A stretch of 32,000 nucleotides of DNA from an uncultured Gammaproteobacteria bacterium (GTDB taxonomy: Bacteria > Patescibacteriota > Microgenomatia > Daviesbacterales > UBA10151). The stretch covers positions 32,796-64,795 of the forward strand of contig CAYHYM010000004.1 of assembly GCA_964360965.1 (NCBI GenBank). Direction: 5' to 3'. The notes under the pieces were generated by a model, which made no database searches, was not told the origin of the DNA, and saw only the letters and a list, made by a program, of their open reading frames with translations. Every line of letters begins with the position of its first letter. Positions within the stretch are counted from its first letter, which is position 1. The translations under genes were made by a program, and so were the position numbers. Below, piece by piece: positions 1,227 to 32,000 of the stretch.

Positions 1227-2102
1227 GTGATTACTAAATCAAAACAGGAATATATTAAAAATGCTATTTATCTTTCCTATACTTCTTTAAATGATTTTTT
1301 GAAGTGTCCCGGGAGCTATTATTTAAAAAACATCTACAGAGATCCCAAAACCGGCTTTAGGATGCAGATTGCCTCACCTTATCTTTCTTTAGGTTCAACA
1401 GTCCATGATGCTATAAAGTGGCATATAGAAATGGCAGGCCCGCTTCGACTCGCGTCGAGCGAGGCGAGACAGGTAACATATGAACAATTGGAGGGAAAAT
1501 TTAGAAATCTATGGCTAAAATATACCGGTAAAAGAGGGGGTTTCTCCACCAAAGAAGATGAAGCAAGTTTTGGTAAGCGCGGCCTGTTAATGTTGGAGAA
1601 TTTTTTTAGAAATGCCAAAAACTTGGAAGATAAACATCACAGTATAGAATTTCCTAAATACCCATTATTGGATAATGTAATTTTAATGGGGAATTTTGAC
1701 TTTATTGGGGAAAAAGAGGATCAGACCTTACATGTTGTGGATTTTAAAACCGGAGCAAATGATGAAAAAGATCCAATTCAGCTTTATATTTATGCCATTT
1801 TGGCAGAGGCTAATTTGGAAAAATCAGTTTCTTCAGCTTCATTTTGGTATTTGGACAGGGAAGATAAACCGCGTGATATAGTTTTAGATCCGCTGGAACC
1901 AAAACTGGAATGGTTAAAAGAAAAAGCCACAGAGTTAAAAAAGGCAATTGGGGAGGGAATGTGGGTTTGTCCTTCGACTCGCTCCGCTCGCTCAGGATTA
2001 TGTAGAGATTGTAGAGACTATCATGCCATTTTGGATGGAAAAGGTGAATTTCAATTTACTGATTATAGATACAAGAAAGATGTTTATTACCTTCCCAAAT
2101 AG
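1227..2102 (+). CDS. PD-(D/E)XK Cas4/RecB-family nuclease with Fe-S-type cysteines
   Basis: 291 aa with a GTG start. VVDFKTG (D-x-K) and QLYIYA (QxxxY) match PD-(D/E)XK/Cas4-RecB motifs. Cys27 plus a C-terminal C-x10-C-x2-C resemble Cas4/AddB 4Fe-4S ligands. Confidence 0.7.
   Translation: MITKSKQEYIKNAIYLSYTSLNDFLKCPGSYYLKNIYRDPKTGFRMQIASPYLSLGSTVHDAIKWHIEMAGPLRLASSEARQVTYEQLEGKFRNLWLKYTGKRGGFSTKEDEASFGKRGLLMLENFFRNAKNLEDKHHSIEFPKYPLLDNVILMGNFDFIGEKEDQTLHVVDFKTGANDEKDPIQLYIYAILAEANLEKSVSSASFWYLDREDKPRDIVLDPLEPKLEWLKEKATELKKAIGEGMWVCPSTRSARSGLCRDCRDYHAILDGKGEFQFTDYRYKKDVYYLPK
1433..1473 (+). repeat. GC-rich TTCGAC-type mini-element copy inside the nuclease ORF (encodes GPLRLASSEARQ)
   Basis: ggcaggcccgcTTCGACtcgcGTCGAGcgaggcgagacagg is a sharp GC island in an AT-rich gene. 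It contains the hairpin TTCGAC/GTCGAG at 1444-1459. Confidence 0.5.
1971..1996 (+). repeat. GC-rich CCTTCGAC...GCTCAGG mini-element copy inside the nuclease ORF (encodes PSTRSARSG)
   Basis: CCTTCGACtcgctccgctcGCTCAGG shares both ends with the copy at 18491-18518. It lies between the first and second C-terminal cysteines. Confidence 0.55.
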
Positions 2103-2123
2103 TGGCTAGACTTCATGAGTAGT

Positions 2124-2555
2124 TTAACCTGTTTTTTTAGAATCTGGGATTATGACTGAAATAACAGGTTTTTGATCTAACAATTCTACCACAAAAAGCC
2201 CATGCAAAAGAGTGGCTGTTTTAAGCACTTGCTCAAGAGGGACTCCTGTTTCTTTGGCAATTTGTTCAGCAGGTGCGCTCCAATGATGATCTTTTAAAGA
2301 GCGGGTAAAAGCTCCCAAGGGCTGGTTTTTGTAAGCTGCCATTCTGGTAAGAAAAGCCAGAGGTTCTGCCAGTTCACTAAATGGCTTGGGGGCACAAGGT
2401 GTATCAGGTATGGGTACTTTAGTTAGATCAACAGGAACTGTTAATTGCTCAACAAGCATCATTTCTACTGTAGATCTATTTTCCAAGCTTGTCAAAAAAG
2501 CTGTTTGGTTAAGGTGAACTAGCCTCAAAAAACGTGAATTAATACCGCAAAACAC
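2124..2555 (-). CDS. hypothetical protein (start uncertain: GTG 2555 or ATG 2462)
   Basis: 143-codon ORF with no recognised motif. The first ~30 codons overlap a terminator-like hairpin, so the internal ATG-ATG at 2462/2459 is an alternative start. Confidence 0.35.
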   Translation of the reverse strand: MFCGINSRFLRLVHLNQTAFLTSLENRSTVEMMLVEQLTVPVDLTKVPIPDTPCAPKPFSELAEPLAFLTRMAAYKNQPLGAFTRSLKDHHWSAPAEQIAKETGVPLEQVLKTATLLHGLFVVELLDQKPVISVIIPDSKKTG

Positions 2556-2567
2556 CTTAAATTCACG
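2527..2567 (-). terminator. terminator-like hairpin CGTGAATT/AATTCACG followed by T6 (minus strand)
   Basis: Minus strand: cGTGAATT (2567-2560), 19-nt loop, AATTCACg (2540-2533), then TTTTTT (2532-2527). It lies downstream of the serine hydrolase gene. A third copy, AAATTCAC (2593-2586), can pair alternatively with the middle arm. Confidence 0.35.
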
Positions 2568-2592
2568 CTAAATTGACAAAAGTAAGTGAATT

Positions 2593-3426
2593 TCAGCTAA
2601 GTTGATGGACCATGTCTTCTACCATTTCTCTAACTCTTGCTTGCTGAGGATAAGTTGAATCTTTATCTGAGACTGCTTTATCGCTTGTTAAAGCTACAAA
2701 GCTGTGTTCAATATATCTACGGTCTATAGATTGCAGATAACCTGCTTGATGGCAATAACTAAATCCATCTTGGGTAATATTACCATCTTTATGCCTAACA
2801 GTAACCTCTTGACCACTTGCTGTAGCAGTTTTTCTAGTAGGGATCCATCTTAAAAACTTTTGGCCCAGATAATTATCTCTAACTAAAAAGCCTTTCCTAA
2901 ACTCATATAAAAATTGGCCTACATTTTGAGCTGTTGTTTCATTTAGTGTGCCTGATTCAAGATTTAAGATAGTAGTATCATGAAGATGCCAATTGGATAA
3001 AACATCCTGTATTCTATTTCTACCTGCTACATCCGCTACCTTGGCAATTGCTACGTTATCAGAAAATTGAATAGAGTATCTTAGGAGATCTTCTAAAGTC
3101 TTTGTTGGCAGCATGTCCCTTCTAACAGCTTTGGACATAGCCCAGAGAGGAAGAAATTCTACTTTAAGTCTTCCAGTACCATGCATATTTTCCTGATACT
3201 CGTAAGGGGTAATATGATATCTTTGTTGTAAATCAAGCACCTCATCTTCTACTATTTTTAGAGCTACAGCCACTATAAAAAGTTTACCCAAAGAAGCAGC
3301 AGGTTGTTTCTCATGAGAATTGTATTCAGTAACTACTTGGTCAGTTTTTAAATTCTGTTGGAAGAAAGCAGTATGTAACTGACCATAAGTTTGTATACCA
3401 CTTGCTTCTTTAATTGAGCCTGTCAT
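2593..3426 (-). CDS. class A beta-lactamase-like serine hydrolase
   Basis: 277 aa. Contains S-x-x-K (ASLGK), an SDN motif (QFSDNVA), an E-x-x-LN-like omega-loop (LESGTLNE) and a KTG-like KDG. No signal peptide is obvious. Confidence 0.6.
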   Translation of the reverse strand: MTGSIKEASGIQTYGQLHTAFFQQNLKTDQVVTEYNSHEKQPAASLGKLFIVAVALKIVEDEVLDLQQRYHITPYEYQENMHGTGRLKVEFLPLWAMSKAVRRDMLPTKTLEDLLRYSIQFSDNVAIAKVADVAGRNRIQDVLSNWHLHDTTILNLESGTLNETTAQNVGQFLYEFRKGFLVRDNYLGQKFLRWIPTRKTATASGQEVTVRHKDGNITQDGFSYCHQAGYLQSIDRRYIEHSFVALTSDKAVSDKDSTYPQQARVREMVEDMVHQLS

Positions 3427-3438
3427 GGTTGGATTGTA

Positions 3439-3483
3439 TCATAAAAGTTTAACTTCTGCTAAATTGTTATATTTGTGGAAGCC
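3439..3483 (-). pseudogene. displaced thpR/ligT 3'-end remnant (copy A, 15 codons)
   Basis: The minus strand reads GGCTTCCACAAATATAACAATTTAGCAGAAGTTAAACTTTTATGA = GFHKYNNLAEVKLL*. Compare the intact gene end GFHKHNTLAEVKLV* at 9801-9845. It starts 8 nt after the PIN stop. Confidence 0.8.
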
Positions 3484-3491
3484 TACCTGTA

Positions 3492-3932
3492 TTATTCTCC
3501 GGCTAATTTAAAGCCCGGCTTAGGGTACCAATCATCAAAAGAAAATATCAAATTTGTTTCAAACTTATTGGCAGTTGCAGCCACAATTGCGTCAAAAATA
3601 GTATTTTGCTTAGATTGAGACCTTGTTTCAAAAATAATCGCTGCCTTAGTTTGAATTTCTAAGTTTACGTACTCCACAGTAAAAGCTCCTGCCAGATATT
3701 GTTTATTTATTAATTTTGCTTTATCAGGTAGGTTTTTAGCACGAGATAAGGCTGTAATTGTTTCCAGAATAGCAGTATTAGGATAAATTACTTGAAATCT
3801 TTTTAAGTTGAGCCACTGACTGATTCTCTTTGCTTTTTGGTGATTAGCATCTTGCTTATCTGCTAAAGCTATTAAGGAATCCGCATCTCCTATAATAATA
3901 TTGTTCACTTTTGTCTTTTCTCTCCACCCCAA
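3492..3932 (-). CDS. PIN-domain toxin (VapC-like)
   Basis: 146 aa. Acidic PIN signature residues occur in IIGDADSLIAL, AILETI, IFDAIVAA and SFDDWY. It overlaps the upstream RHH gene; an alternative GTG start at 3908 gives a GTGA stop/start overlap. Confidence 0.7.
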   Translation of the reverse strand: MGWREKTKVNNIIIGDADSLIALADKQDANHQKAKRISQWLNLKRFQVIYPNTAILETITALSRAKNLPDKAKLINKQYLAGAFTVEYVNLEIQTKAAIIFETRSQSKQNTIFDAIVAATANKFETNLIFSFDDWYPKPGFKLAGE

Positions 3933-4189
3933 GCGTAGTAGTCGTGATTTATAGATACATCCGTAGGAGAACCTTGTTGGCTGGGCATTTGTTCTGCCAT
4001 CTTAGCCAGATCAAGTAAAGCCTGGGCATTGGATTTAGGGTGATTAATCTCCAAGCCCTTACTCAGGGCCTCTCTTATAATTTCAGCTTCAGCCTTATTC
4101 TTATCTTGAGCTATTAAGCTAATTCTTCTTCTGGTATCATCCGGGATGTGAACACTGATTCTTTGCATATGTATTACATCATACATCAT
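3905..4189 (-). CDS. ribbon-helix-helix (CopG/VapB-like) antitoxin; probable true start ATG 4168
   Basis: MQRISVHIPDDTRRRISLIAQDKNKAEAEIIREAL is a typical RHH N-terminus. TTGACA (4206-4201), a 17-nt spacer and TATGAT (4183-4178) precede the ATG at 4168. Confidence 0.7.
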   Translation of the reverse strand: MMYDVIHMQRISVHIPDDTRRRISLIAQDKNKAEAEIIREALSKGLEINHPKSNAQALLDLAKMAEQMPSQQGSPTDVSINHDYYAWGGEKRQK

Positions 4190-4202
4190 ACAAACAGGTT
4201 TG

Positions 4203-4404
4203 TCAAGTGCCCAACTTAACTTCAGCTAAAGTGTTGTGTTTATGAAATCCATTAGAGGGGATCGACTCAAATAGCTTAATCGACGATATCCGTATTGGAT
4301 TAAAAGGCATGGCCATAAGTTTTTCCATTTCCACTTCTAATTTTTGATCTACTTTTAAATGGTTGTTGAGCTTGGAAATATTGAAATCTTCACTTTTGAT
4401 AAAG
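4203..4404 (-). pseudogene. 5'-truncated thpR/ligT paralogue remnant (copy B, about 65 codons, frame intact)
   Basis: Translates ..FIKSEDFNISKLNNHLKVDQKLEVEMEKLMAMPFNPIRISSIKLFESIPSNGFHKHNTLAEVKLGT*, collinear with the C-terminus of the gene at 9801-10367. Nt 4297-4375 are identical to 9892-9970 (79 nt). Confidence 0.85.
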
Positions 4405-4427
4405 ACTTAAAAAAGTTAAGGTAAAAA

Positions 4428-4512
4428 TTACCAGGCTATTTTAGAGGGGAAAGGTGAGTTTCAGTTTACAGACCACCGCTACAAAAAAGATATTTATTTC
4501 TTGAAACGTTAA
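4428..4512 (+). pseudogene. 3'-end remnant of a Cas4-like nuclease paralogue
   Basis: Translates NYQAILEGKGEFQFTDHRYKKDIYFLKR*. Compare DYHAILDGKGEFQFTDYRYKKDVYYLPK* at the end of the gene at 1227-2102. Differences are mostly synonymous or conservative. Confidence 0.8.
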
Positions 4513-6050
4513 TAAATAGGCTCGAGGTCTTTTTCTACAACTTTTTCTATTAAAGTTTGTCCAGGGAAGATATAAATAAGTCTGATTTTGCCTGAACCGA
4601 CCTTGTTCAGTTCGTCAATAATAGTTGTAACTTTACTTGACTTAATATCAGTAAAAGGTTTGGCGACGGAATGGTATCTGCTGATAAAACCTTCTAGTTC
4701 GGAAGCTGCCAGAATCACCACTACATTTTTATCCAGAAGTGTGGTCATTTCGCCTTTAAGCTTACCTTGTTCTCGTAATAGGTTTTCAATTACTTGATAA
4801 AATTGGTTAAAATCTTGGGTGTTTGATTTACAGTTAATAATAAACTGTTGGACCTTTTCTTGTGTCTCAGAATTTACTGCGATAGACCCCTCTAGGATGT
4901 GACCTTCAAAGGCTGAAGTACTACTGTTGTAGACAGAAGGTAACCCAAGGAGAATAGTATGTGCTACCTCAATTTGGTGTTCCGCAAGCTCTGCTAACAC
5001 GCTTCTTACTGCTTGTTTTGGGTCAATATAGTCAATTCCAGGTTCTTGTTCTAGTAATTTGCCAACGCCTCCGTGCATAGCGGTGGAGCTAAAAGTGATT
5101 ATTGGGGGTATTCTTCTCTCCCTAGGTAGTGCTTTCGCGCGAGCCATTAATTCAGGCATATGAGCTTTTAAACTTTGGCCATATAAATTAGTGTCAATTG
5201 AGCCTGATAGTTTTGGATCAGAGATCGGATAAATCTCAGGAAACGAGCGATCGCCAAAATAGTTCTTCCCCAAGGCTGTAATTAGAGAGTTCATCAGGGC
5301 TTCGGTGAAATGGGCAGTATCACGACCGCTATCTCCACCAACAACAATAATTGGTCTTCTAGCAATCACTCTTGTTTCTTCTGGTTTACTAATATCCGGA
5401 GTAATGGTTTGTATTGGTAGTCTTTGAATACCCTTCAGGTAGCGTCTAATATCAAATCCAACGTAAAATCTAGGGTCTCCTGAAGAAGAAAATACTGTAT
5501 CCTCATAAGGATAATCTGCTCCAGTAATTAGGTCACGATCAAAAAAATGCCTTATGGGAATATCAGTTTGGGTAAATGGGTTAACGGTGCCATACTCAAG
5601 ACCTAGCTTGGTCACATCAGCACGCTTTAGATCAGACTCACTAACATCTAAGTGCTGGGCCAATTTGGTAAAGTCTAGCTCTCGATCAGCTCTGGTATGA
5701 GTTATAACTAGGGGATAACCAGGAGCTGTTAGGGCATTAGATCTCATAATTCGCCATAGTTCTACTCCTTGCTCTCCCTCGAAAATCGCAGCCGCAGCAT
5801 TTTCTCTTACAGATCTGGGACGGCCTTGATTTTTACCAAAAAAATAATGAACTCCGTATTCAAAACGCAAAAGTGGCGGGACTGGAGTTTCTGTATATAT
5901 CTCATCTCTAATCTCTGCCGGGACATCAAAAATGGTCAGGCAAAGTGAATCAAAATGGCTGGCGATTTGAGCCAGTCTTTCCACCACAGGATCGCTTTCT
6001 TCAAGGCCAAGTTGCTTTGGGTTAAATCCAACCTGTAATAATTGTTCCAT
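4509..6050 (-). CDS. two-domain protein: YbaK/ProX-like deacylase domain fused to an Asp/Glu-racemase-like domain lacking the catalytic cysteines
   Basis: 513 aa. The N-terminal half has a YbaK-like pattern (LVITHTRADRELDFTKLAQHL...GLEYGTVNPF...). The C-terminal half has a racemase-like IIVVGGDSGRDTAHF, then FSSTAMH (versus CNTAH) and ILAASELEG (versus GCTEL). All assignments are by eye. Confidence 0.45.
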   Translation of the reverse strand: MEQLLQVGFNPKQLGLEESDPVVERLAQIASHFDSLCLTIFDVPAEIRDEIYTETPVPPLLRFEYGVHYFFGKNQGRPRSVRENAAAAIFEGEQGVELWRIMRSNALTAPGYPLVITHTRADRELDFTKLAQHLDVSESDLKRADVTKLGLEYGTVNPFTQTDIPIRHFFDRDLITGADYPYEDTVFSSSGDPRFYVGFDIRRYLKGIQRLPIQTITPDISKPEETRVIARRPIIVVGGDSGRDTAHFTEALMNSLITALGKNYFGDRSFPEIYPISDPKLSGSIDTNLYGQSLKAHMPELMARAKALPRERRIPPIITFSSTAMHGGVGKLLEQEPGIDYIDPKQAVRSVLAELAEHQIEVAHTILLGLPSVYNSSTSAFEGHILEGSIAVNSETQEKVQQFIINCKSNTQDFNQFYQVIENLLREQGKLKGEMTTLLDKNVVVILAASELEGFISRYHSVAKPFTDIKSSKVTTIIDELNKVGSGKIRLIYIFPGQTLIEKVVEKDLEPIY

Positions 6051-6148
6051 ATATCTATTATCTATGTGATAGAGCAGGTATTATACACTATAAGGCTTAT
6101 TATGTCAAAATGATTAAACTAAGGATTTTTGTGTTTTTAAAACACTTG

Positions 6149-6179
6149 TTGACATATTGTCATACAGATGTGTTATACT
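6149..6179 (+). promoter_or_regulatory. promoter (TTGACA, 19-nt spacer, TGtTATACT extended -10) with embedded palindrome TGACAtatTGTCA
   Basis: TTGACA 6149-6154, TG 6171-6172, TATACT 6174-6179. ATG 6186 lies only 6 nt after the -10 and there is no SD. The inverted repeat at 6150-6162 overlaps the -35. Confidence 0.5.
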
Positions 6180-6185
6180 TAAGTT

Positions 6186-7916
6186 ATGGCATTAAAAAGA
6201 ACTACCCTAAGGATAGATGAAGACTTAAAAAAAGATACTCAACAGCGAGCCTTAGAGGAGAATACCACTCAACAAGAAATTCTCAATAGAGCTTTAAAGA
6301 AATATTTAAGAACTGAGGTTCAGAAAGAGCTTGCTAGGGAAACAGTGGCCGAGCCACAGGAAGTAACTACAAAAAAGGCTAGTTCGAGTAAACCAGCAGA
6401 TGTAATTGATTTGATATTTAGCTCACTGGATATCGAAGCCAGGGGTTTTATTAAAAAGGGAGATTTGATAGATGCCCTTAATTTTAGAGGAATTCTAGAG
6501 GATGACATTAGGATTAAAAATGTCATGGAGGCTTTGAGTAAAACTAATAAAGACGATGATATCCCCCCCCAAACCTTCCGCAGGATTGTTGGGCCGTACA
6601 TTACATTAATTGAAAAAGCCCTGACTGGTAGTCTGGTTATCCCCGATTTTAAGAATTTCTGTAGTTTTATTACTAATCTTTATAATCGCACAATTCAAAA
6701 CAAAGATGGCGAGGTTTCAGATTACATACCTGAGCTAAAAGGAGTTGACCCAAATAACTATGCTATTTCCATTTGTACTATAGACGGACAGAGATTTAAT
6801 TTGGGAGATTACAATACTCCCTATCTAGCCCAATCTACTGCCAAACCCATAAATTATTGTCTGGCCTTAGAAGAGCACGGCGAAGAAGTAGTTCATAAAA
6901 AGATTGGCAGAGAACCTTTAGGCAAAGGTTTAAATCAGTTGACTCTAAACAGTCAAGGATTGCCGCATAATCCTTTAAATGGTACAGGAGCAATTATGTC
7001 GGCCTCCTTGATTGGCCAAGAACTTTCCCTGGAAGACCGTTTTGAACAGGCTTTAAAGAAATGGAAGTCGCTTTCCGGAGGAATTAATCCTGGATTTTCA
7101 AAATCAGCTTACGATTCAGCTAAACATGTTGCGGATAAAGATCTGGCGCTAGCTTATTTTATGAGATTGAATCAGTTGTTTTCCAAAGGATCAAATTTAG
7201 AAGAATATTTGGACTTTCTGTTTAAATGCTTATCTATTGAAACTACCACTGAAGCTCAAGCAATTATTGCTGCCACTTTGGCAAACGCCGGAGTTTGTCC
7301 GACCAATGGGGAAGCCGTGTTAAAAATGGAGACTACAAAGAATTGTTTATCTTTGATGTATTCCTGCGGTATGGAAGATTACTCGTCTGAGTTTGCTTTT
7401 GCAATAGGACTTCCTGCTAAAAGCGGTATTTCAGGATCGATTATGATAGTTGTGCCTAATGTGATGGGAATTGCGATTTATTCTCCTAGGGTTGATAGTA
7501 ATGGCAATAGTGTTAAAGGATTAGATTTATGTAATAAATTAATCCAGAGATTTAATTTTCATAATTACGATAGCTTAACTAAAAAACTGGATAAAATTGA
7601 TCCCAGGCTTTTGAAAAATGAAAATAAAATGAGGGGCGTGATGGCTGTTTGTACTGCTGCTTCTCAGGGAGATCTATATGAGATCCAAAGGTTAGAGGCC
7701 TCGGGGGTTGCTTTGGATGAAGGTGATTATGATGCCAGAACCGGCATACATCTGGCAGCCTCGGAAGGTCACGAAGAGGTAGTTCGCTATTTTATTGAAA
7801 GAAGAGTGGATATTAACCCTAAAGACCGTTGGGGTGGGACACCTTTAGCTGATGCCATGAGAGGTAACCACACTGCGGTAATTGAACTGTTGGAGAAAAA
7901 TGGAGCCAGGCTATGA
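6186..7916 (+). CDS. glsA: kidney-type (GLS-like) glutaminase with N-terminal RHH domain, EF-hand-like region and C-terminal ankyrin repeats
   Basis: 576 aa. The RHH is TLRIDEDLKKDTQQRALEENTTQQEILNRALKKYL. Glutaminase core motifs: YIPELK, CTIDGQR, QSTAKP (Ser-x-x-Lys), GLPAKSGISG, VVPNVMG, GNSVKG, NFHNYD. Three ANK repeats follow (DYDARTGIHLAASEGHEEVV..KDRWGGTPLADA). Confidence 0.85.
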   Translation: MALKRTTLRIDEDLKKDTQQRALEENTTQQEILNRALKKYLRTEVQKELARETVAEPQEVTTKKASSSKPADVIDLIFSSLDIEARGFIKKGDLIDALNFRGILEDDIRIKNVMEALSKTNKDDDIPPQTFRRIVGPYITLIEKALTGSLVIPDFKNFCSFITNLYNRTIQNKDGEVSDYIPELKGVDPNNYAISICTIDGQRFNLGDYNTPYLAQSTAKPINYCLALEEHGEEVVHKKIGREPLGKGLNQLTLNSQGLPHNPLNGTGAIMSASLIGQELSLEDRFEQALKKWKSLSGGINPGFSKSAYDSAKHVADKDLALAYFMRLNQLFSKGSNLEEYLDFLFKCLSIETTTEAQAIIAATLANAGVCPTNGEAVLKMETTKNCLSLMYSCGMEDYSSEFAFAIGLPAKSGISGSIMIVVPNVMGIAIYSPRVDSNGNSVKGLDLCNKLIQRFNFHNYDSLTKKLDKIDPRLLKNENKMRGVMAVCTAASQGDLYEIQRLEASGVALDEGDYDARTGIHLAASEGHEEVVRYFIERRVDINPKDRWGGTPLADAMRGNHTAVIELLEKNGARL

Positions 7917-8218
7917 AAAGTGATATTAAGACAACCGGAGTAATGGCGCTTGACTGGGCAGCGGCTCAGGGAGATTTGCACGAGATTCAAAGGTTAGTCG
8001 CATCCGGCGCAGATTTGAACGAAGGTGATTATGATGGGAGAACCGCAATACATCTGGCAGCCTCGGAAGGACAGGAAGAAATTGTCAGGTATTTAATTGC
8101 GAAAGGTGTAAATATTAATCCTAGGGATCGTTGGGGTGGGACACCTTTAGCTGATGCCATGAGAGGTAACCACACCAAAGTTATAGAGCTTTTGAAAAAA
8201 CATAATGCACAGAAATAA
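7913..8218 (+). CDS. stand-alone ankyrin-repeat protein, tandem duplicate of the glutaminase C-terminus
   Basis: 101 aa, collinear with residues ~480-576 of the preceding gene. Nt 8129-8175 are identical to 7827-7873. ATGA start/stop overlap at 7913-7916. Confidence 0.75.
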   Translation: MKSDIKTTGVMALDWAAAQGDLHEIQRLVASGADLNEGDYDGRTAIHLAASEGQEEIVRYLIAKGVNINPRDRWGGTPLADAMRGNHTKVIELLKKHNAQK

Positions 8219-8229
8219 TCTAATTTCCT

Positions 8230-9330
8230 ATGAATGATAAACAAATTTCTCCTCCCAATAAAATAAAAGTTTATGTATTAAACACAGGTGGAACTCTGGG
8301 AATGGTGGGTAAACCGCTTCGTCCCGCTAAATCAGCTGCAGAGCTTTTAGAGGGAATTAATACTCCGCCTGAAGTGGAACTTATCATAGATGATTTTAAG
8401 TTTAGGCAGGATTCTACTAATATTTTGCATGCTGAAAGGCTAATGATGGCTAGGCAAATAGCCGAAAATTATAAAACCCATGATGCTTTTGTCATTATGC
8501 ACGGGACTGATTCTATGGCAGAAACAGCTGCAGCTTTTTGTATGTTCTTTAAATTATCTTTACAAAAGCCTTTAATTTTAGTTGGTGCTCAGATGTCTAA
8601 AGATGAGCCTGGTTCAGATGTACAACTGCAGTTATCAAATACTTTTAGAGTTGCCAGCGCCTTTCATAGATATAATATTGTGGGTGTTTATAATGTTTGT
8701 ATCGGTGATATTTGGGATGGGTCAAGGCTTAGGAAAAGAGCAGAGTCAAATTTCATGGCTTTTTACACTCCAGGTCGTCATCCGGTGGCCAGAATTTGGC
8801 CTCATATTCACTTTGATGAAGGGTTAAGATATAAAGATCCTGTTTTGGCAGTTCAGGATTTAAAGATTGATGGTGTGCTAGAGCGTAAAGTAGCTACTTT
8901 TAAAGTATCAGCAGATACACCTCCATGGGTAGTAATGGATCAAGTTTTAAAAAATCGCCTCAAAGGGGTCATTTTAGAGTGTAAAGGTGCAGGAAATATT
9001 CCAAATCGTGAATGGGAAGATTATGAAAACGGGACAACTTATTCATGGATTGATGTAATTGCGGCAGCAACTAAAGCTGGAATCCATGTGGGGATTATTT
9101 CACCTTTTGAAGATGGCAGAGTTATCCTAGGTCGTTATGAGCTGGGAGCAGAAGCACTTGAGGCAGGGGCAATTAGCTTAGAAAGTCTGACTCCAGATAT
9201 GGCAGATATTAAGTTTAGACAGGCTATTGCTATGTTTCCTACAGATAGAGAAAAAATTCAAGAATTTATTTCAACTAATATTATTGGAGAATTACTTACC
9301 GGAGCAGAAGATTCTGAGGAATTCATTTAG
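8230..9330 (+). CDS. ansA: L-asparaginase, type I family
   Basis: 366 aa. Contains the VLNTGGTLGM (TGGT) and HGTDSMAETAAA (HGTDTM) asparaginase motifs. Confidence 0.75.
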   Translation: MNDKQISPPNKIKVYVLNTGGTLGMVGKPLRPAKSAAELLEGINTPPEVELIIDDFKFRQDSTNILHAERLMMARQIAENYKTHDAFVIMHGTDSMAETAAAFCMFFKLSLQKPLILVGAQMSKDEPGSDVQLQLSNTFRVASAFHRYNIVGVYNVCIGDIWDGSRLRKRAESNFMAFYTPGRHPVARIWPHIHFDEGLRYKDPVLAVQDLKIDGVLERKVATFKVSADTPPWVVMDQVLKNRLKGVILECKGAGNIPNREWEDYENGTTYSWIDVIAAATKAGIHVGIISPFEDGRVILGRYELGAEALEAGAISLESLTPDMADIKFRQAIAMFPTDREKIQEFISTNIIGELLTGAEDSEEFI

Positions 9331-9340
9331 AGTAAGTTTT

Positions 9341-9385
9341 TTACCCAAGTTTAACTTCAGCCAGAATGTTATGTTTATGGAAGCC
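9341..9385 (-). pseudogene. displaced thpR/ligT 3'-end remnant (copy C, 15 codons)
   Basis: The minus strand reads GGCTTCCATAAACATAACATTCTGGCTGAAGTTAAACTTGGGTAA = GFHKHNILAEVKLG*. It lies 13 nt downstream of the degenerate hicA stop. Confidence 0.8.
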
Positions 9386-9398
9386 ATTTTTGTAGAAA

Positions 9399-9518
9399 TC
9401 AAAGTAATTCTTTAAGTTCATCTATGGAAATTTCCACTGACTTTAAAATACTCATTAGAGTTTTTCTTTTGAGAGCTTTAATGACCTCCTTTGGCTTAAC
9501 AACTGGAATTTTGGGCAT
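9399..9518 (-). pseudogene. hicA: hicA toxin gene with 105-nt in-frame internal deletion (39 codons left)
   Basis: Translates MPKIPVVKPKEVIKALKRKTLMSILKSVEISIDELKELL*. The intact paralogue at 31043-31267 has MPKIPIVKPKEVIKALQRK[35 aa including GSH]...KRKTLMSILKSAEISIDELKKLL. Too short to appear in the ORF track. Confidence 0.85.
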
Positions 9519-9782
9519 TTAAGAAAGAGTTTGCTGGATGGGTATATCAATTGTTGTCATAAAGCTGGGACCTTTTTCTTCAGGAACTATTTCATTATGT
9601 TTTTTTAAACTGGCAATATATACGCTGATAGCATCTTTAACCATCTCCACAGCTTCTTCCAAACTGTTACCTTCTGTGACACATCCTGGCAGAGCAGGTA
9701 CAATCACCACATACCCACCTTCTTCAGCTGGTTCAAAAATAGCAGTATATTTTAAGATTTTTTGAGAGATTTTCTTAGCCAT
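9519..9782 (-). CDS. hicB: HicB-family antitoxin (copy 1)
   Basis: 87 aa. YTAIFEPAEEGGYVVIVPALPGCVTEGNSLEEAVEMVKDAI is the HicB/UPF0150 fold signature. TAA-ATG junction with hicA. Confidence 0.8.
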   Translation of the reverse strand: MAKKISQKILKYTAIFEPAEEGGYVVIVPALPGCVTEGNSLEEAVEMVKDAISVYIASLKKHNEIVPEEKGPSFMTTIDIPIQQTLS

Positions 9783-9800
9783 GGAGTTATTATAGCATTT

Positions 9801-10367
9801 TCAAACTAACTTTACTTCAGCTAAAGTATTATGTTTGTGGAAACCTTCTTGGGGAACTGATTCAAACAGTTTAATGGAGGAAATTTTAATGGGATTAAAA
9901 GGCATGGCCATAAGTTTTTCCATTTCCACTTCTAATTTTTGATCTACTTTTAAATGGTTGTTGAGCTTGGCAATGGTGATATGAGGAATGAAACGACGTT
10001 CATCTGCTGTGAGCCTTAAAGTGGCCAAGCTATCTTTGATGCGCTCACGAATAAGTAAAATTTTATCTATATCCCCTTTGACTCCAATCCAAAGAACTTG
10101 AGGATGGTGGAGGTTTGGAAATCCATCAATATAGGCAGGGGTAACTTCAAATGCAGGAATATTCGCTACAGCATTTCTGATAATTTCAACTAATTTATCC
10201 TTTAATCCATCCGGTTGTTCTCCTAAAAAAGCTAAAGTCAGGTGAATTTTGTCTAAATCAGTAATTCTTACTTGAGTAATTAATGTATGCAATTTAGCTT
10301 GTATAGCTTGAAACTGCAATCTATTCTCTTTCGGAATTTCAAGTGCTATGAAAAACCTTATACCCAT
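9801..10367 (-). CDS. thpR: RNA 2',3'-cyclic phosphodiesterase / 2'-5' RNA ligase (2H phosphoesterase)
   Basis: 188 aa with two H-x-T-x motifs (HLTLAFLG and HITIAKL) at the expected spacing. Confidence 0.8.
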   Translation of the reverse strand: MGIRFFIALEIPKENRLQFQAIQAKLHTLITQVRITDLDKIHLTLAFLGEQPDGLKDKLVEIIRNAVANIPAFEVTPAYIDGFPNLHHPQVLWIGVKGDIDKILLIRERIKDSLATLRLTADERRFIPHITIAKLNNHLKVDQKLEVEMEKLMAMPFNPIKISSIKLFESVPQEGFHKHNTLAEVKLV

Positions 10368-30595: not shown

Positions 30596-30979
30596 TTATC
30601 TCTTTCTCTTGATGAGATGCTTTAGTTTAGGCACGTTTGAAGAAGAAGTCAAGCGAGATTTAGGTTTTTTAAAGTAGCTAATAAAAAGATAAACAGAGAT
30701 AGCTGTTAATGTTACTGTGACAAAATTTAAAACATCTAGGGCTTTTAATAAAAGAATAATGATTATCCCAAAAGAGATAAAGGCAGAAATTAATAAAAAA
30801 TCAGCAGCTATATTAATAGTAAGGGTTAAAGCAAAAAAAAGTGGAGTCAAAAAAGCTAATAGTTGTAAGGGTGTAGCTTGAGTTAAAGTTTGAGGATAAG
30901 GAACTCCTTGAAAGATGACAAATAAAAAAATTCCCCAGCAGATTAAAGCCAGTAAAGCTTTGGACAGCAGCTTGAGCAT
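30596..30979 (-). CDS. integral membrane protein with basic C-terminal tail
   Basis: 127 aa with 3-4 TM helices and a KPKSRLTSSSNVPKLKHLIKRKR tail. Confidence 0.5.
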   Translation of the reverse strand: MLKLLSKALLALICWGIFLFVIFQGVPYPQTLTQATPLQLLAFLTPLFFALTLTINIAADFLLISAFISFGIIIILLLKALDVLNFVTVTLTAISVYLFISYFKKPKSRLTSSSNVPKLKHLIKRKR

Positions 30980-30993
30980 AGTTTAATTGTAGC

Positions 30994-31042
30994 TTAAACT
31001 CCTATTACTTCAAAGGTTGAGCCCACTGAATTTTTAGAAACC
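30994..31042 (-). pseudogene. displaced 3'-end remnant of the SbcC-like ATPase gene
   Basis: The minus strand translates (E)VSKNSVGSTFEVIGV*. Compare EVSKNATGSTFEVIGT* at the end of the partial gene at 31842-32000. It starts at the hicA stop codon. Confidence 0.75.
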
Positions 31043-31267
31043 TCAAAGTAATTTTTTAAGTTCATCAATAGAAATTTCAGCAGATTTTAAAATACTCATT
31101 AAAGTTTTTCTTTTGATAACTTTATTATGATAAGCAATAGTGGCTCTGAGAGTTTTATCAGAATTGTACATGACATAATGGCTTCCACTAATATGATCTA
31201 TTATAAAGTCCTTTCTTTGTAGAGCTTTGATAACCTCTTTTGGTTTAACAATCGGAATTTTTGGCAT
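31043..31267 (-). CDS. hicA: HicA-family toxin (copy 2, intact)
   Basis: 74 aa. KPKEVIKALQRKDFIIDHISGSHYVM contains the GSH motif. Confidence 0.8.
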   Translation of the reverse strand: MPKIPIVKPKEVIKALQRKDFIIDHISGSHYVMYNSDKTLRATIAYHNKVIKRKTLMSILKSAEISIDELKKLL

Positions 31268-31528
31268 TTAAGAAGGGGAGGAGATGGGTATATCTATGGT
31301 GGTCATAAAGCTGGGCCCTTTTTCTTCAGGGACAGGTTCATGATGTTTTTTCAAACTAGCAATATACCCAGTTATAGCATCTTTAACCATCTCTACAGCT
31401 TCTTCTAAACTGTCCCCCTCTGTGATACAACCTGGTAGGGCAGGAACATAGACTACATAGCCACCTTCTTCAGCTGGTTCAAAAATAGCAGTATATTTTA
31501 GAATTTTTTGAGAGATCTTCTTAGTCAT
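31268..31528 (-). CDS. hicB: HicB-family antitoxin (copy 2)
   Basis: 86 aa, roughly 85-90% identical by eye to the copy at 9519-9782. Confidence 0.8.
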   Translation of the reverse strand: MTKKISQKILKYTAIFEPAEEGGYVVYVPALPGCITEGDSLEEAVEMVKDAITGYIASLKKHHEPVPEEKGPSFMTTIDIPISSPS

Positions 31529-31606
31529 AGTTTAATTTTACTACTTTTTACTTTCAAAAACTAGATGCTTGACATCCAGAGAGAAAGAGAGTTAAATAAA
31601 GGTAAT

Positions 31607-31837
31607 ATGGAAGAAAAAAATGACGGTGAGCCTGGAAAAGTATGGGAGGGTTTTGATAGTTTAAGTGCTAGAGAAAAAGAAGGAGTAATTCAGGATCTAA
31701 AAAGCAGTTTTGAAGAAAAATTGGGTAATACAGATCCTAAAGTTAAAGAGATTCTTGTCGATAACTGGGAAAGCATGGTAAGAGTAGCAGCTGGTGTAGC
31801 CAAACCTCAGAAGAGTTTAGGTAATCAAGAGGAATAA
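31607..31837 (+). CDS. hypothetical acidic protein (tracked ORF 31565-31837; ATG 31607 preferred)
   Basis: TTGACA 31569-31574, a 17-nt spacer and TTAAAT 31592-31597 lie inside the tracked ORF, pointing to the start at 31607. Confidence 0.4.
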   Translation: MEEKNDGEPGKVWEGFDSLSAREKEGVIQDLKSSFEEKLGNTDPKVKEILVDNWESMVRVAAGVAKPQKSLGNQEE

Positions 31838-31841
31838 TATT

Positions 31842-32000
31842 TTAAGTTCCTATTACTTCAAAGGTGGAGCCAGTGGCATTTTTGGAAACTTCAATTCTGA
31901 CCGGAAATTCTTCCTTGAGTTCTTCTAAGTGAGTAATCACTAAAATCTTTTCAAAATCATCTTTGATTGAGTCTAAAACCTCAACAATCCTCCCTCTTCC
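31842..32000 (-). CDS. C-terminal end of an SMC/SbcC/Rad50-type ABC ATPase (partial, continues beyond window)
   Basis: ..GRIVEVLDSIKDDFEKILVITHLEELKEEFPVRIEVSKNATGSTFEVIGT* has an H-loop-like VITH followed by a typical SbcC-type tail. Confidence 0.5.
   Translation of the reverse strand, partial: GRGRIVEVLDSIKDDFEKILVITHLEELKEEFPVRIEVSKNATGSTFEVIGT

Follow-up and report, generated by a model that had tools for sequence, protein, structure and literature searches.

Diverged copies of a host gene end around a HicAB toxin-antitoxin cassette in a Daviesbacterales contig

How does a stand-alone toxin-antitoxin (TA) pair come to lie between two diverged copies of the end of a single host gene? This question is raised by a 32,000-nt stretch of contig CAYHYM010000004.1 (positions 32,796 to 64,795; GTDB order Daviesbacterales of the Patescibacteriota), hereafter the window, in which a hicB-hicA pair lies downstream of an sbcC/Rad50-like ATPase gene and is followed by a second copy of that gene's end. 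A first-pass annotation, made from the letters of the window, had pointed to this arrangement and to a similar one at thpR. The evidence presented here is comparative: the relatives used are ~70-85% identical at the nucleotide level, the segments compared are short, and several of the statistics are post hoc.

An ATPase gene end on both sides of a hicBA cassette

The ATPase gene, of which the window holds only a part, is encoded on the minus strand and ends in GAAGTTTCCAAAAATGCCACTGGCTCCACCTTTGAAGTAATAGGAACTTAA (31892-31842), and a second version of this end, GAGGTTTCTAAAAATTCAGTGGGCTCAACCTTTGAAGTAATAGGAGTTTAA, is found at 31044-30994; both sequences proved to be where the first-pass annotation had put them. 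The two 51-nt copies are identical at 41 of 51 bases (80%) and translate into EVSKNATGSTFEVIGT and EVSKNSVGSTFEVIGV, respectively, each followed by a stop codon. Their similarity extends ~10 nt beyond this stop, yielding 62 nt at 77% identity between an upstream, functional copy (31833-31894, of which the core 31842-31892 comprises 16 codons and the stop) and a displaced copy, referred to as the relic (30985-31046, core 30994-31044). Local alignment of the copies scored 57, against a mean of 19.4 (sd 2.2) and a maximum of 31 for 500 shuffles; the similarity is far above chance. The relic begins within the hicA stop codon, as had been claimed: the TGA at 31043-31045 overlaps the first relic codon, GAG, at 31042-31044. 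The 3′ part of the ATPase gene (31842-32000, minus strand) runs off the window, and a further 233 nt of it were recovered from contig L053. Its orthologues in L002-L006, L020 and L098 measure 718-743 aa, and that of L098 matches the Pfam profiles AAA_23, SMC_N and SbcC_Walker_B.

The insert between the copies spans about 850 bp and holds, in line with the earlier description, an orphan open reading frame (ORF), hicB and hicA. On the minus strand, hicB (31268-31528, 86 aa) matches PF15919 (HicB_lk_antitox; 1.8e-11) and is 91% identical to P0122, while hicA (31043-31267, 74 aa) matches PF07927 (HicA_toxin; 3.8e-14) over 57 of the 58 profile positions, carries the GSH motif and is 89% identical to the HicA of L097-L099. 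As the hicB stop codon directly adjoins the hicA ATG (31268/31267), domains and adjacency together identify 31043-31528 as a predicted HicAB type II TA system. The orphan ORF runs in the opposite direction (31607-31837, plus strand), convergent with the ATPase gene, and encodes 76 aa from the ATG at 31607 or 90 aa from 31565. We rejected homology as a clue to its nature: it has no Pfam match and no homologue among 5.8e9 proteins, and the unrelated-looking antisense ORFs found at the same position in L097 (204 aa) and L103 (155 aa) share only 15-28% identity with it. The divergent promoter block between the orphan ORF and hicB (31529-31607), with TTGACA-17-TTAAAT toward the ORF and TAAAAT 6 nt before the hicB ATG, is conserved with L097 and L103 and 72% identical to that of L097. 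The antisense slot thus varies in length and sequence across the window, L097 and L103 behind a conserved promoter.

Loci anchored on methionyl-tRNA synthetase assign the window, which carries ordinary chromosomal genes, to Candidatus Daviesbacteria (Microgenomates, within the Candidate Phyla Radiation). Four relatives among the closest public genomes (L020, L005, L006 and L002; Candidatus Daviesbacteria, with a methionyl-tRNA synthetase 71-77% identical to that of the window) display an empty site, in which the sbcC-like gene (719-743 aa) is separated by 14-48 nt from a membrane-protein gene. The ATPase stop directly precedes this neighbour, as the first-pass annotation had foreseen for an empty site. 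In the window, the same native neighbour (30596-30979, minus strand, 127 aa) lies behind the relic, which runs into GCTACAATTAAACT ATG and thereby matches the native junction of L002, GCTACAATATATTC ATG. The downstream copy is therefore the displaced end, while the upstream copy now completes the gene, which bears out the proposed order of intact end, cassette and displaced end. A fifth relative, L004, harbours another TA pair (XRE and Gp49) at this very junction, with at most ~14 nt duplicated.

The bracketed structure is real and not an assembly artefact. Although the source is a metagenome at roughly 4x coverage, which would leave room for a chimera of strain variants, the contigs L053 and L054 (ATPase locus) and L090 and L091 (thpR locus), taken from three replicate Hainich H51 groundwater assemblies, agree with the window at 99.8-99.98% identity across both junctions. 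Moreover, the same block occurs in unrelated samples and studies (L097-L101), and copies only 80% identical are not confusable for an assembler, so that such a chimera hardly merits consideration. Assembly error had been named at the outset as one way in which the structure could dissolve, and ordinary tandem duplication as the other. The latter would require that the gene end was duplicated first and that the cassette landed between the copies by chance later. The window does contain one cargo-free gene-tail duplicate, that of a glutaminase ankyrin tail (7612-7901 versus 7914-8203), but no relative or orthologous locus was found with an sbcC or thpR duplicate lacking the cassette, and the recurrence at many genes, with cargo always exactly between the copies, would amount to a repeated coincidence. 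We therefore regard this sequence of events as very improbable.

The relic might also serve the downstream gene. A promoter-like TTGAAG-16-TACAAT in front of the membrane-protein gene lies within the relic (30986-31013, minus strand), and relic D2 of L097 repeats this geometry, as do the empty sites in L002 and L005; the promoter within the window relic is presumably active. An insertion right after the ATPase stop would split it, while with the gene end duplicated, promoter and ATPase frame both stay intact. Across many loci, as well as at 30980-31013, 9783-9800 and 31529-31545, -10 boxes (TGCTATAAT, TACAAT or TAAAAT) sit 6-9 nt ahead of start codons, a spacing that suggests leaderless or near-leaderless transcripts, and promoters often sit within the last codons of the preceding gene. 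An exact 12-mer, AATTAAACTATG, shared by the regions before the hicB and membrane-gene starts, had suggested a third, decayed ATPase-end copy upstream of hicB. This candidate was ruled out, as TAAAATTAGACTATG is intrinsic to the cassette, even in relatives from other contexts.

Recurrence in relatives and at other host genes

The closest HicB (91% identical) is found in L097-L101. In L097-L099, the gene order reads sbcC, an antisense ORF (ORF204), hicB, hicA, relic D1, XRE-Gp49, relic D2 with the native junction and membrane gene, and DUF5615-DUF433. This region (L097 1-3200, and likewise in L098 and L099) thus holds three TA pairs downstream of sbcC, with sbcC-end relics after the first two, and the membrane gene seems to be truncated by the third pair, DUF433-DUF5615. 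From the promoter block through hicBA to the stop of the relic (31607-30994), the window is 81% identical to L097. The hicA/relic junction, at which TTTGA meets GGTTTCTAAAAATTC, is the same in both, and the sequence after the relic differs. The functional ATPase ends of window and L097 agree at 44 of 51 positions, and the window relic and D1 at 42 of 51; in both cases, the L097 sequence is the closest match of the window copy.

Third codon positions were compared between the window and L098, with the restriction that these are small samples tested post hoc. For the two TA genes, identity amounts to 48/86 (hicB) and 47/74 (hicA), and for the gene-end copies to 13/16 (functional) and 11/16 (relic; our own count), which together make 119/192 for the block versus 46/96 for the ATPase body. 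Along the ATPase gene, values of 6/16 and 6/16 are followed by 13/16 exactly from the start of the repeat. From these comparisons, the block including both gene-end copies looks younger than the host gene, and it seems to move between lineages as a unit.

The sister locus in the window (9341-10367, minus strand) consists of thpR (9801-10367, with its functional end at 9801-9845), hicB (9519-9782), an internally deleted hicA (9399-9518), a 13-nt slipped repeat (9386-9398) and a thpR-end relic (9341-9385). The first-pass annotation had described the same pattern here, and the layout of gene end, hicB, hicA and relic indeed holds, except that the cassette at thpR lacks an orphan ORF. It had also put the identity of the two cassettes at 85-90%; we measured 84-86% at the nucleotide level in three ungapped blocks and 87% for the HicB protein, the low end of that estimate. 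The two hicBA cassettes belong to separate lineages, one associated with each host gene, and the thpR type with gene-end copies recurs in L105 and L106; in L106, a MazE-type gene lies upstream of hicB with just 20 nt of thpR-like end between them. In the window, a 105-nt in-frame deletion has removed the GSH region of the thpR-locus hicA. The hicA of L105 (329-425) is internally deleted as well, and hicB is intact at both loci, so that the toxin decays and the antitoxin is retained. The 13-nt TTTCTACAAAAAT behind the thpR-locus hicA was considered as a passenger derived from the sbcC relic and rejected, because in L105 it is the start of the thpR relic and its second occurrence reflects slipped duplication.

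By its sequence context, the thpR hicBA locus is the edge of a multi-event pile-up, and the ATPase locus likewise belongs to a larger one. At the empty thpR site of L094 and L095, thpR and a PD-(D/E)XK nuclease gene converge and overlap. In the window, thpR (minus strand) and the nuclease gene (1227-2102, plus strand) are 7.7 kb apart, and the intervening 2103-9800 holds a 143-aa ORF, a beta-lactamase-like gene, an RHH-PIN pair, a 513-aa ORF, glutaminase-ankyrin and asparaginase genes and hicBA, and scattered between these accreted genes are relics of the thpR end and of the nuclease gene end. In the segment 3439-4511, the RHH-PIN pair (PIN 3492-3932, RHH 3905-4189) has a 175-nt thpR fragment in front (4203-4387, minus strand) and a 45-nt thpR-end copy behind (3439-3483). 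The end of the nuclease gene has left a relic as well (4421-4511, plus strand), which aligns over 78 nt (score 61 versus a shuffle maximum of 26) and lies head-to-head with the thpR fragment; where the two abut, a new joint seems to have formed when the convergent gene-end region was duplicated. At the thpR site of L092, another hicBA family is accompanied by a thpR relic, while L096 carries an RHH-PIN pair without repeat. The tandem duplicate of the ankyrin tail mentioned above (75-76% identity between the copies) forms a separate 101-aa ORF (7913-8218), has no cargo and differs at third codon positions in 42 of 71 cases.

The architecture extends to other genes. In L068, L069, L074 and L076, more distant hicBA relatives are found at a Clp ATPase gene end, in antisense orientation and flanked by copies of the gene tail; L069 and L076 each have three clp tail copies and two cassettes. 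In L020, a DUF433-DUF5615 pair lies between 78-nt copies of the sbcD end. Altogether, at least six targets were encountered (sbcC, thpR, sbcD, clp, ArgRS and promoters), and the cargo ranges from hicBA, RHH-PIN and DUF433-DUF5615 to a phosphatase, HD and HAD hydrolases, and none at all in the case of the ankyrin tail. The repeats measure ~12 to 302 nt, and their boundaries vary even at one gene (48 versus 72 nt at sbcC, 45 versus 175 nt at thpR, and two boundaries ~14 nt apart at clp).

A generic screen for gene tails repeated downstream also caught the repeat pairs of diversity-generating retroelements (DGRs), tandem paralogues and fragments of hsdS. Its raw counts were similar to those of control screens run in other directions, so that it was rejected as a source of a clean frequency or 3′-bias estimate. 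A type I restriction S-subunit gene in L094 (8825-10174) has a diverged ~110-nt copy of its own 3′ end about 130 nt downstream. The GGGGCAATTATAGCA repeats around hicBA in L062, L072 and L078 were discarded as target duplicates, being a genome-wide promoter motif there. TTTCTA and TTTCCA were likewise abandoned as markers of relic and functional end, respectively, as the functional end in L103 has TCT.

How the cassette may have entered

No integrase or recombinase domain was detected in the 30 ORFs of the window, nor among the called genes in the fetched parts of the related loci. The gene-end copies do not fold like attC: neither strand outdid its shuffled versions (z 0.07 to 1.06). They also returned no Rfam match at E up to 1; the cassette boundaries lack a GTTRRRY core, and the window lacks intI. 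Inverted terminal repeats were seen neither in the repeat analysis of the window nor at the cassette ends, and the length of the duplicate is not fixed. A retroelement origin was examined too: the window holds no reverse transcriptase, the substitutions between the copies are of all types, and true DGRs were seen only in L020 and L044. Judged by eye on the alignment and ORF translations, the former (L020 4943-7331) comprises a reverse transcriptase, an Avd-like protein and a target gene between sbcD and sbcC, while the latter is a pair resembling variable and template repeats (L044 370-412 versus 818-860). A phage vector was rejected, as the cassette is absent from the viral contigs searched. 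Given that no mobility enzyme or site was found and that duplicate lengths, boundaries and cargo all vary, import by host recombination is the simplest account. Our tentative preference, held at slightly under even confidence, is that recombination brought the cassette in from relatives, using the homology of the gene-end copies.

According to this import reading, the ~850-bp insert (orphan ORF and hicB-hicA) would enter the ATPase 3′ end from a relative already carrying the cassette at the same gene. The cassette would have no recombinase of its own, and the host gene-end copies travelling along with it would supply the homology. On the gene side, incoming DNA would pair with the ATPase gene and deliver a complete end of the foreign allele (31842-31892). 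At the opposite flank, the joint would arise within the resident gene end, illegitimately or through short homology, and the sequence downstream of this joint (30994-31044) would persist as the relic. Because the promoter of the next gene appears to lie in the last ATPase codons, tolerated products would be those keeping both the ATPase frame and this promoter; in tightly packed genomes that tolerate no others, survivors would carry the duplicate. Once formed, the relic could serve as a second homology patch, so that the block would spread with both copies. Direct repeats favour loop-out, which addictive TA cargo would resist, and this might explain why TA pairs dominate. Repeated rounds would then stack cassettes, with an older relic after each. 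We infer the recombination route, its direction and the role of addiction from the comparisons given here.

The empty sites, the other TA pair at the L004 junction, the continuity of the relic with the native spacer and the block shared with L097 accord with import, and further observations may point toward a donor-allele tract on the gene side. The relics keep their reading frame, stop codon and plausible C-termini. In independent contrasts between functional and displaced copies, 16, 11 and 38 differences fall at codon positions 1, 2 and 3, respectively, and the 175-nt thpR fragment shows 6, 4 and 22; one sbcD codon differs as Ser TCT versus AGT. The third-position share of 58% stands against ~42% expected, by our own estimate, if the relic had drifted neutrally after in-situ duplication. 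This suggests, though not conclusively, that most of the divergence accumulated while the copies were working gene ends of separate lineages. The block being apparently younger than the gene body points the same way, as does thpR, which appears mosaic in that its N- and C-terminal thirds have different nearest relatives (parents chosen post hoc). A nucleotide sliding-window comparison of thpR with three relatives was too noisy for placing breakpoints. Furthermore, natural competence has been demonstrated in a bacterium of the Candidate Phyla Radiation (CPR; PMC10633639).

Other observations weigh against import. That demonstration concerns a CPR bacterium and not Daviesbacteria, and the available genomes include no donor/recipient pair close enough to reveal a foreign tract in the ATPase gene. 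With 45-78 nt at 71-86% identity, the arms are poor substrates for recombination. A fixed attachment site of short length would account for the third-position jump at the repeat boundary no less well than a long homologous anchor would. Behind three different cassettes, the thpR relics (T2, T4 and that of L092) all begin at the same codon, and the relics adjoining hicA begin at a near-identical motif in sbcC and thpR (minus strand, 31042-31056 and 9828-9845): GAGGTTTCC-AAA-AAT in the former and GAAGGTTTCCACAAACAT in the latter. Lastly, the youngest cases have near-identical repeats (76/76 in L072; 194 nt at 95% in L015), and the two sbcC copies, 10/51 apart, are no further from each other than from their orthologues (11-14/51).

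The last two points are what would be expected if the duplicate had been made in situ at insertion, through staggered-break fill-in or a template switch resuming upstream, with the copies drifting since. The geometry is indeed that of a target-site duplication, and microhomology is scant, with 4 nt (TTGA) where hicA meets the relic and 0-2 nt at the other joints. Against such an origin stand the third-position bias, the preserved frames and natural-looking C-termini of the relics, the variable duplication length, the lack of visible inverted terminal repeats, and the block that appears to move between lineages with both copies. On balance, we consider in-situ duplication unlikely.

The shared relic starts bear on another alternative, in which integrase-less miniature integrative elements are moved in trans. 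Their attachment site would include the target gene end, integration would restore the gene and displace the native end, and accretion would build arrays. This is the classical footprint of elements entering gene 3′ ends; tandem arrays do exist in L097, L069 and L076, the left edge of the shared block coincides with the start of the repeat, and the pattern common to the sbcC and thpR relic starts, GTTTCCA(C)AAA(C)AT (a 12-nt gapped similarity), is found once in the window. These starts could be the trace of a recombination core; together with the block edge, they are as compatible with a recombinase core as with a hop between the two genes through short homology. An integrase encoded elsewhere in the genome is possible given that only the window and the fetched parts of related loci were covered, but the at least six targets would call for many specificities, the repeat boundaries differ between cassettes at one gene over lengths of ~12 to 302 nt, one case is cargo-free, and the gene-end copies fold like shuffles. 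We accordingly give little credence to movement by an integrase in trans.

The import reading has a more far-reaching variant, which strikes us as doubtful but conceivable: the TA cassettes could be recombinase-free selfish elements that carry their own landing site, in the form of gene end, cassette and gene end. Both flanks would then be homologous to the single gene end of a naive relative, whatever lies downstream, and insertion by host recombination would regenerate them. Rare hops to a new gene might exploit chance short similarity, such as the GTTTCCA(C)AAA(C)AT of sbcC and thpR. With addiction blocking loop-out, successive arrivals would build arrays, resembling an integron without integrase or attC.

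The footprint compared with known systems

The recurrent footprint, made up of diverged host-tail duplicates around stand-alone TA cassettes, empty sites and relic-separated arrays, offers a testable clue to how such cassettes enter genomes, a process whose mechanisms were described as unelucidated in a 2020 review (PMC7167474). For compact CPR genomes with promoters inside preceding genes, it would be a way to gain accessory genes without harming the neighbours. For annotators, it means that short pseudogene tails following TA pairs are relics that carry information and should not be dismissed as noise. A literature search yielded no account of TA cassettes that lie between diverged host gene tails and form stacked arrays. 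The footprint resembles 3′-end integrative elements, the orphan modules of rhs and cdiA, and homology-facilitated illegitimate recombination (HFIR), and fully matches none of them.

Acinetobacter, Streptococcus pneumoniae and Pseudomonas stutzeri were reportedly the organisms of the original HFIR work. During natural transformation or conjugation, HFIR is an established route for foreign DNA (PMC3240628). Shared with the present case are the combination of one homologous anchor with one illegitimate or short-homology joint, the independence from an element-borne enzyme, the arbitrary cargo and the varying far joint. In the laboratory crosses, however, HFIR usually replaces or deletes resident DNA, whereas the far joint here repeatedly lies in the same gene end and the relic is kept. 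The relic also seems to travel as a second homology patch while arrays build up, and the CPR case comes from sequence comparison.

Integrative elements that enter gene 3′ ends include ICESt1/3 at fda, of which integrase-less CIME derivatives exist. SGI1 at trmE similarly brings a replacement end (10.1101/2021.06.18.448947). Such elements have in common with our loci an intact end borne by the element, cargo and a displaced native end, as well as tandem accretion and the existence of integrase-less derivatives flanked by att sites. In contrast, the present loci revealed no integrase or conserved core, and their inserts are 0.5-1.2 kb in size, use many targets and have variable boundaries.

The orphan toxin/immunity modules that follow rhs and cdiA genes (PMC3967940, PMC4927057) likewise arise when recombination within the conserved portion of a gene brings a new end and a protective gene to its 3′ end, with older ends accumulating downstream as relics. 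There, however, it is a variable toxin domain that is displaced and the repeat lies upstream of it, while here a conserved housekeeping tail is displaced and the TA cargo is unrelated to it. Chromosomal integron arrays are likewise made of very small cassettes, often TA pairs, with repeated sites between them, but their attC-like hairpin, GTTRRRY core and intI have no counterpart here, where the repeated sites are host gene ends specific to each locus. The proteins themselves are ordinary members of the HicAB family (PF07927 and PF15919), with the same domains, hicB-hicA order and GSH motif. What is new is the insertion footprint, not the TA pair.

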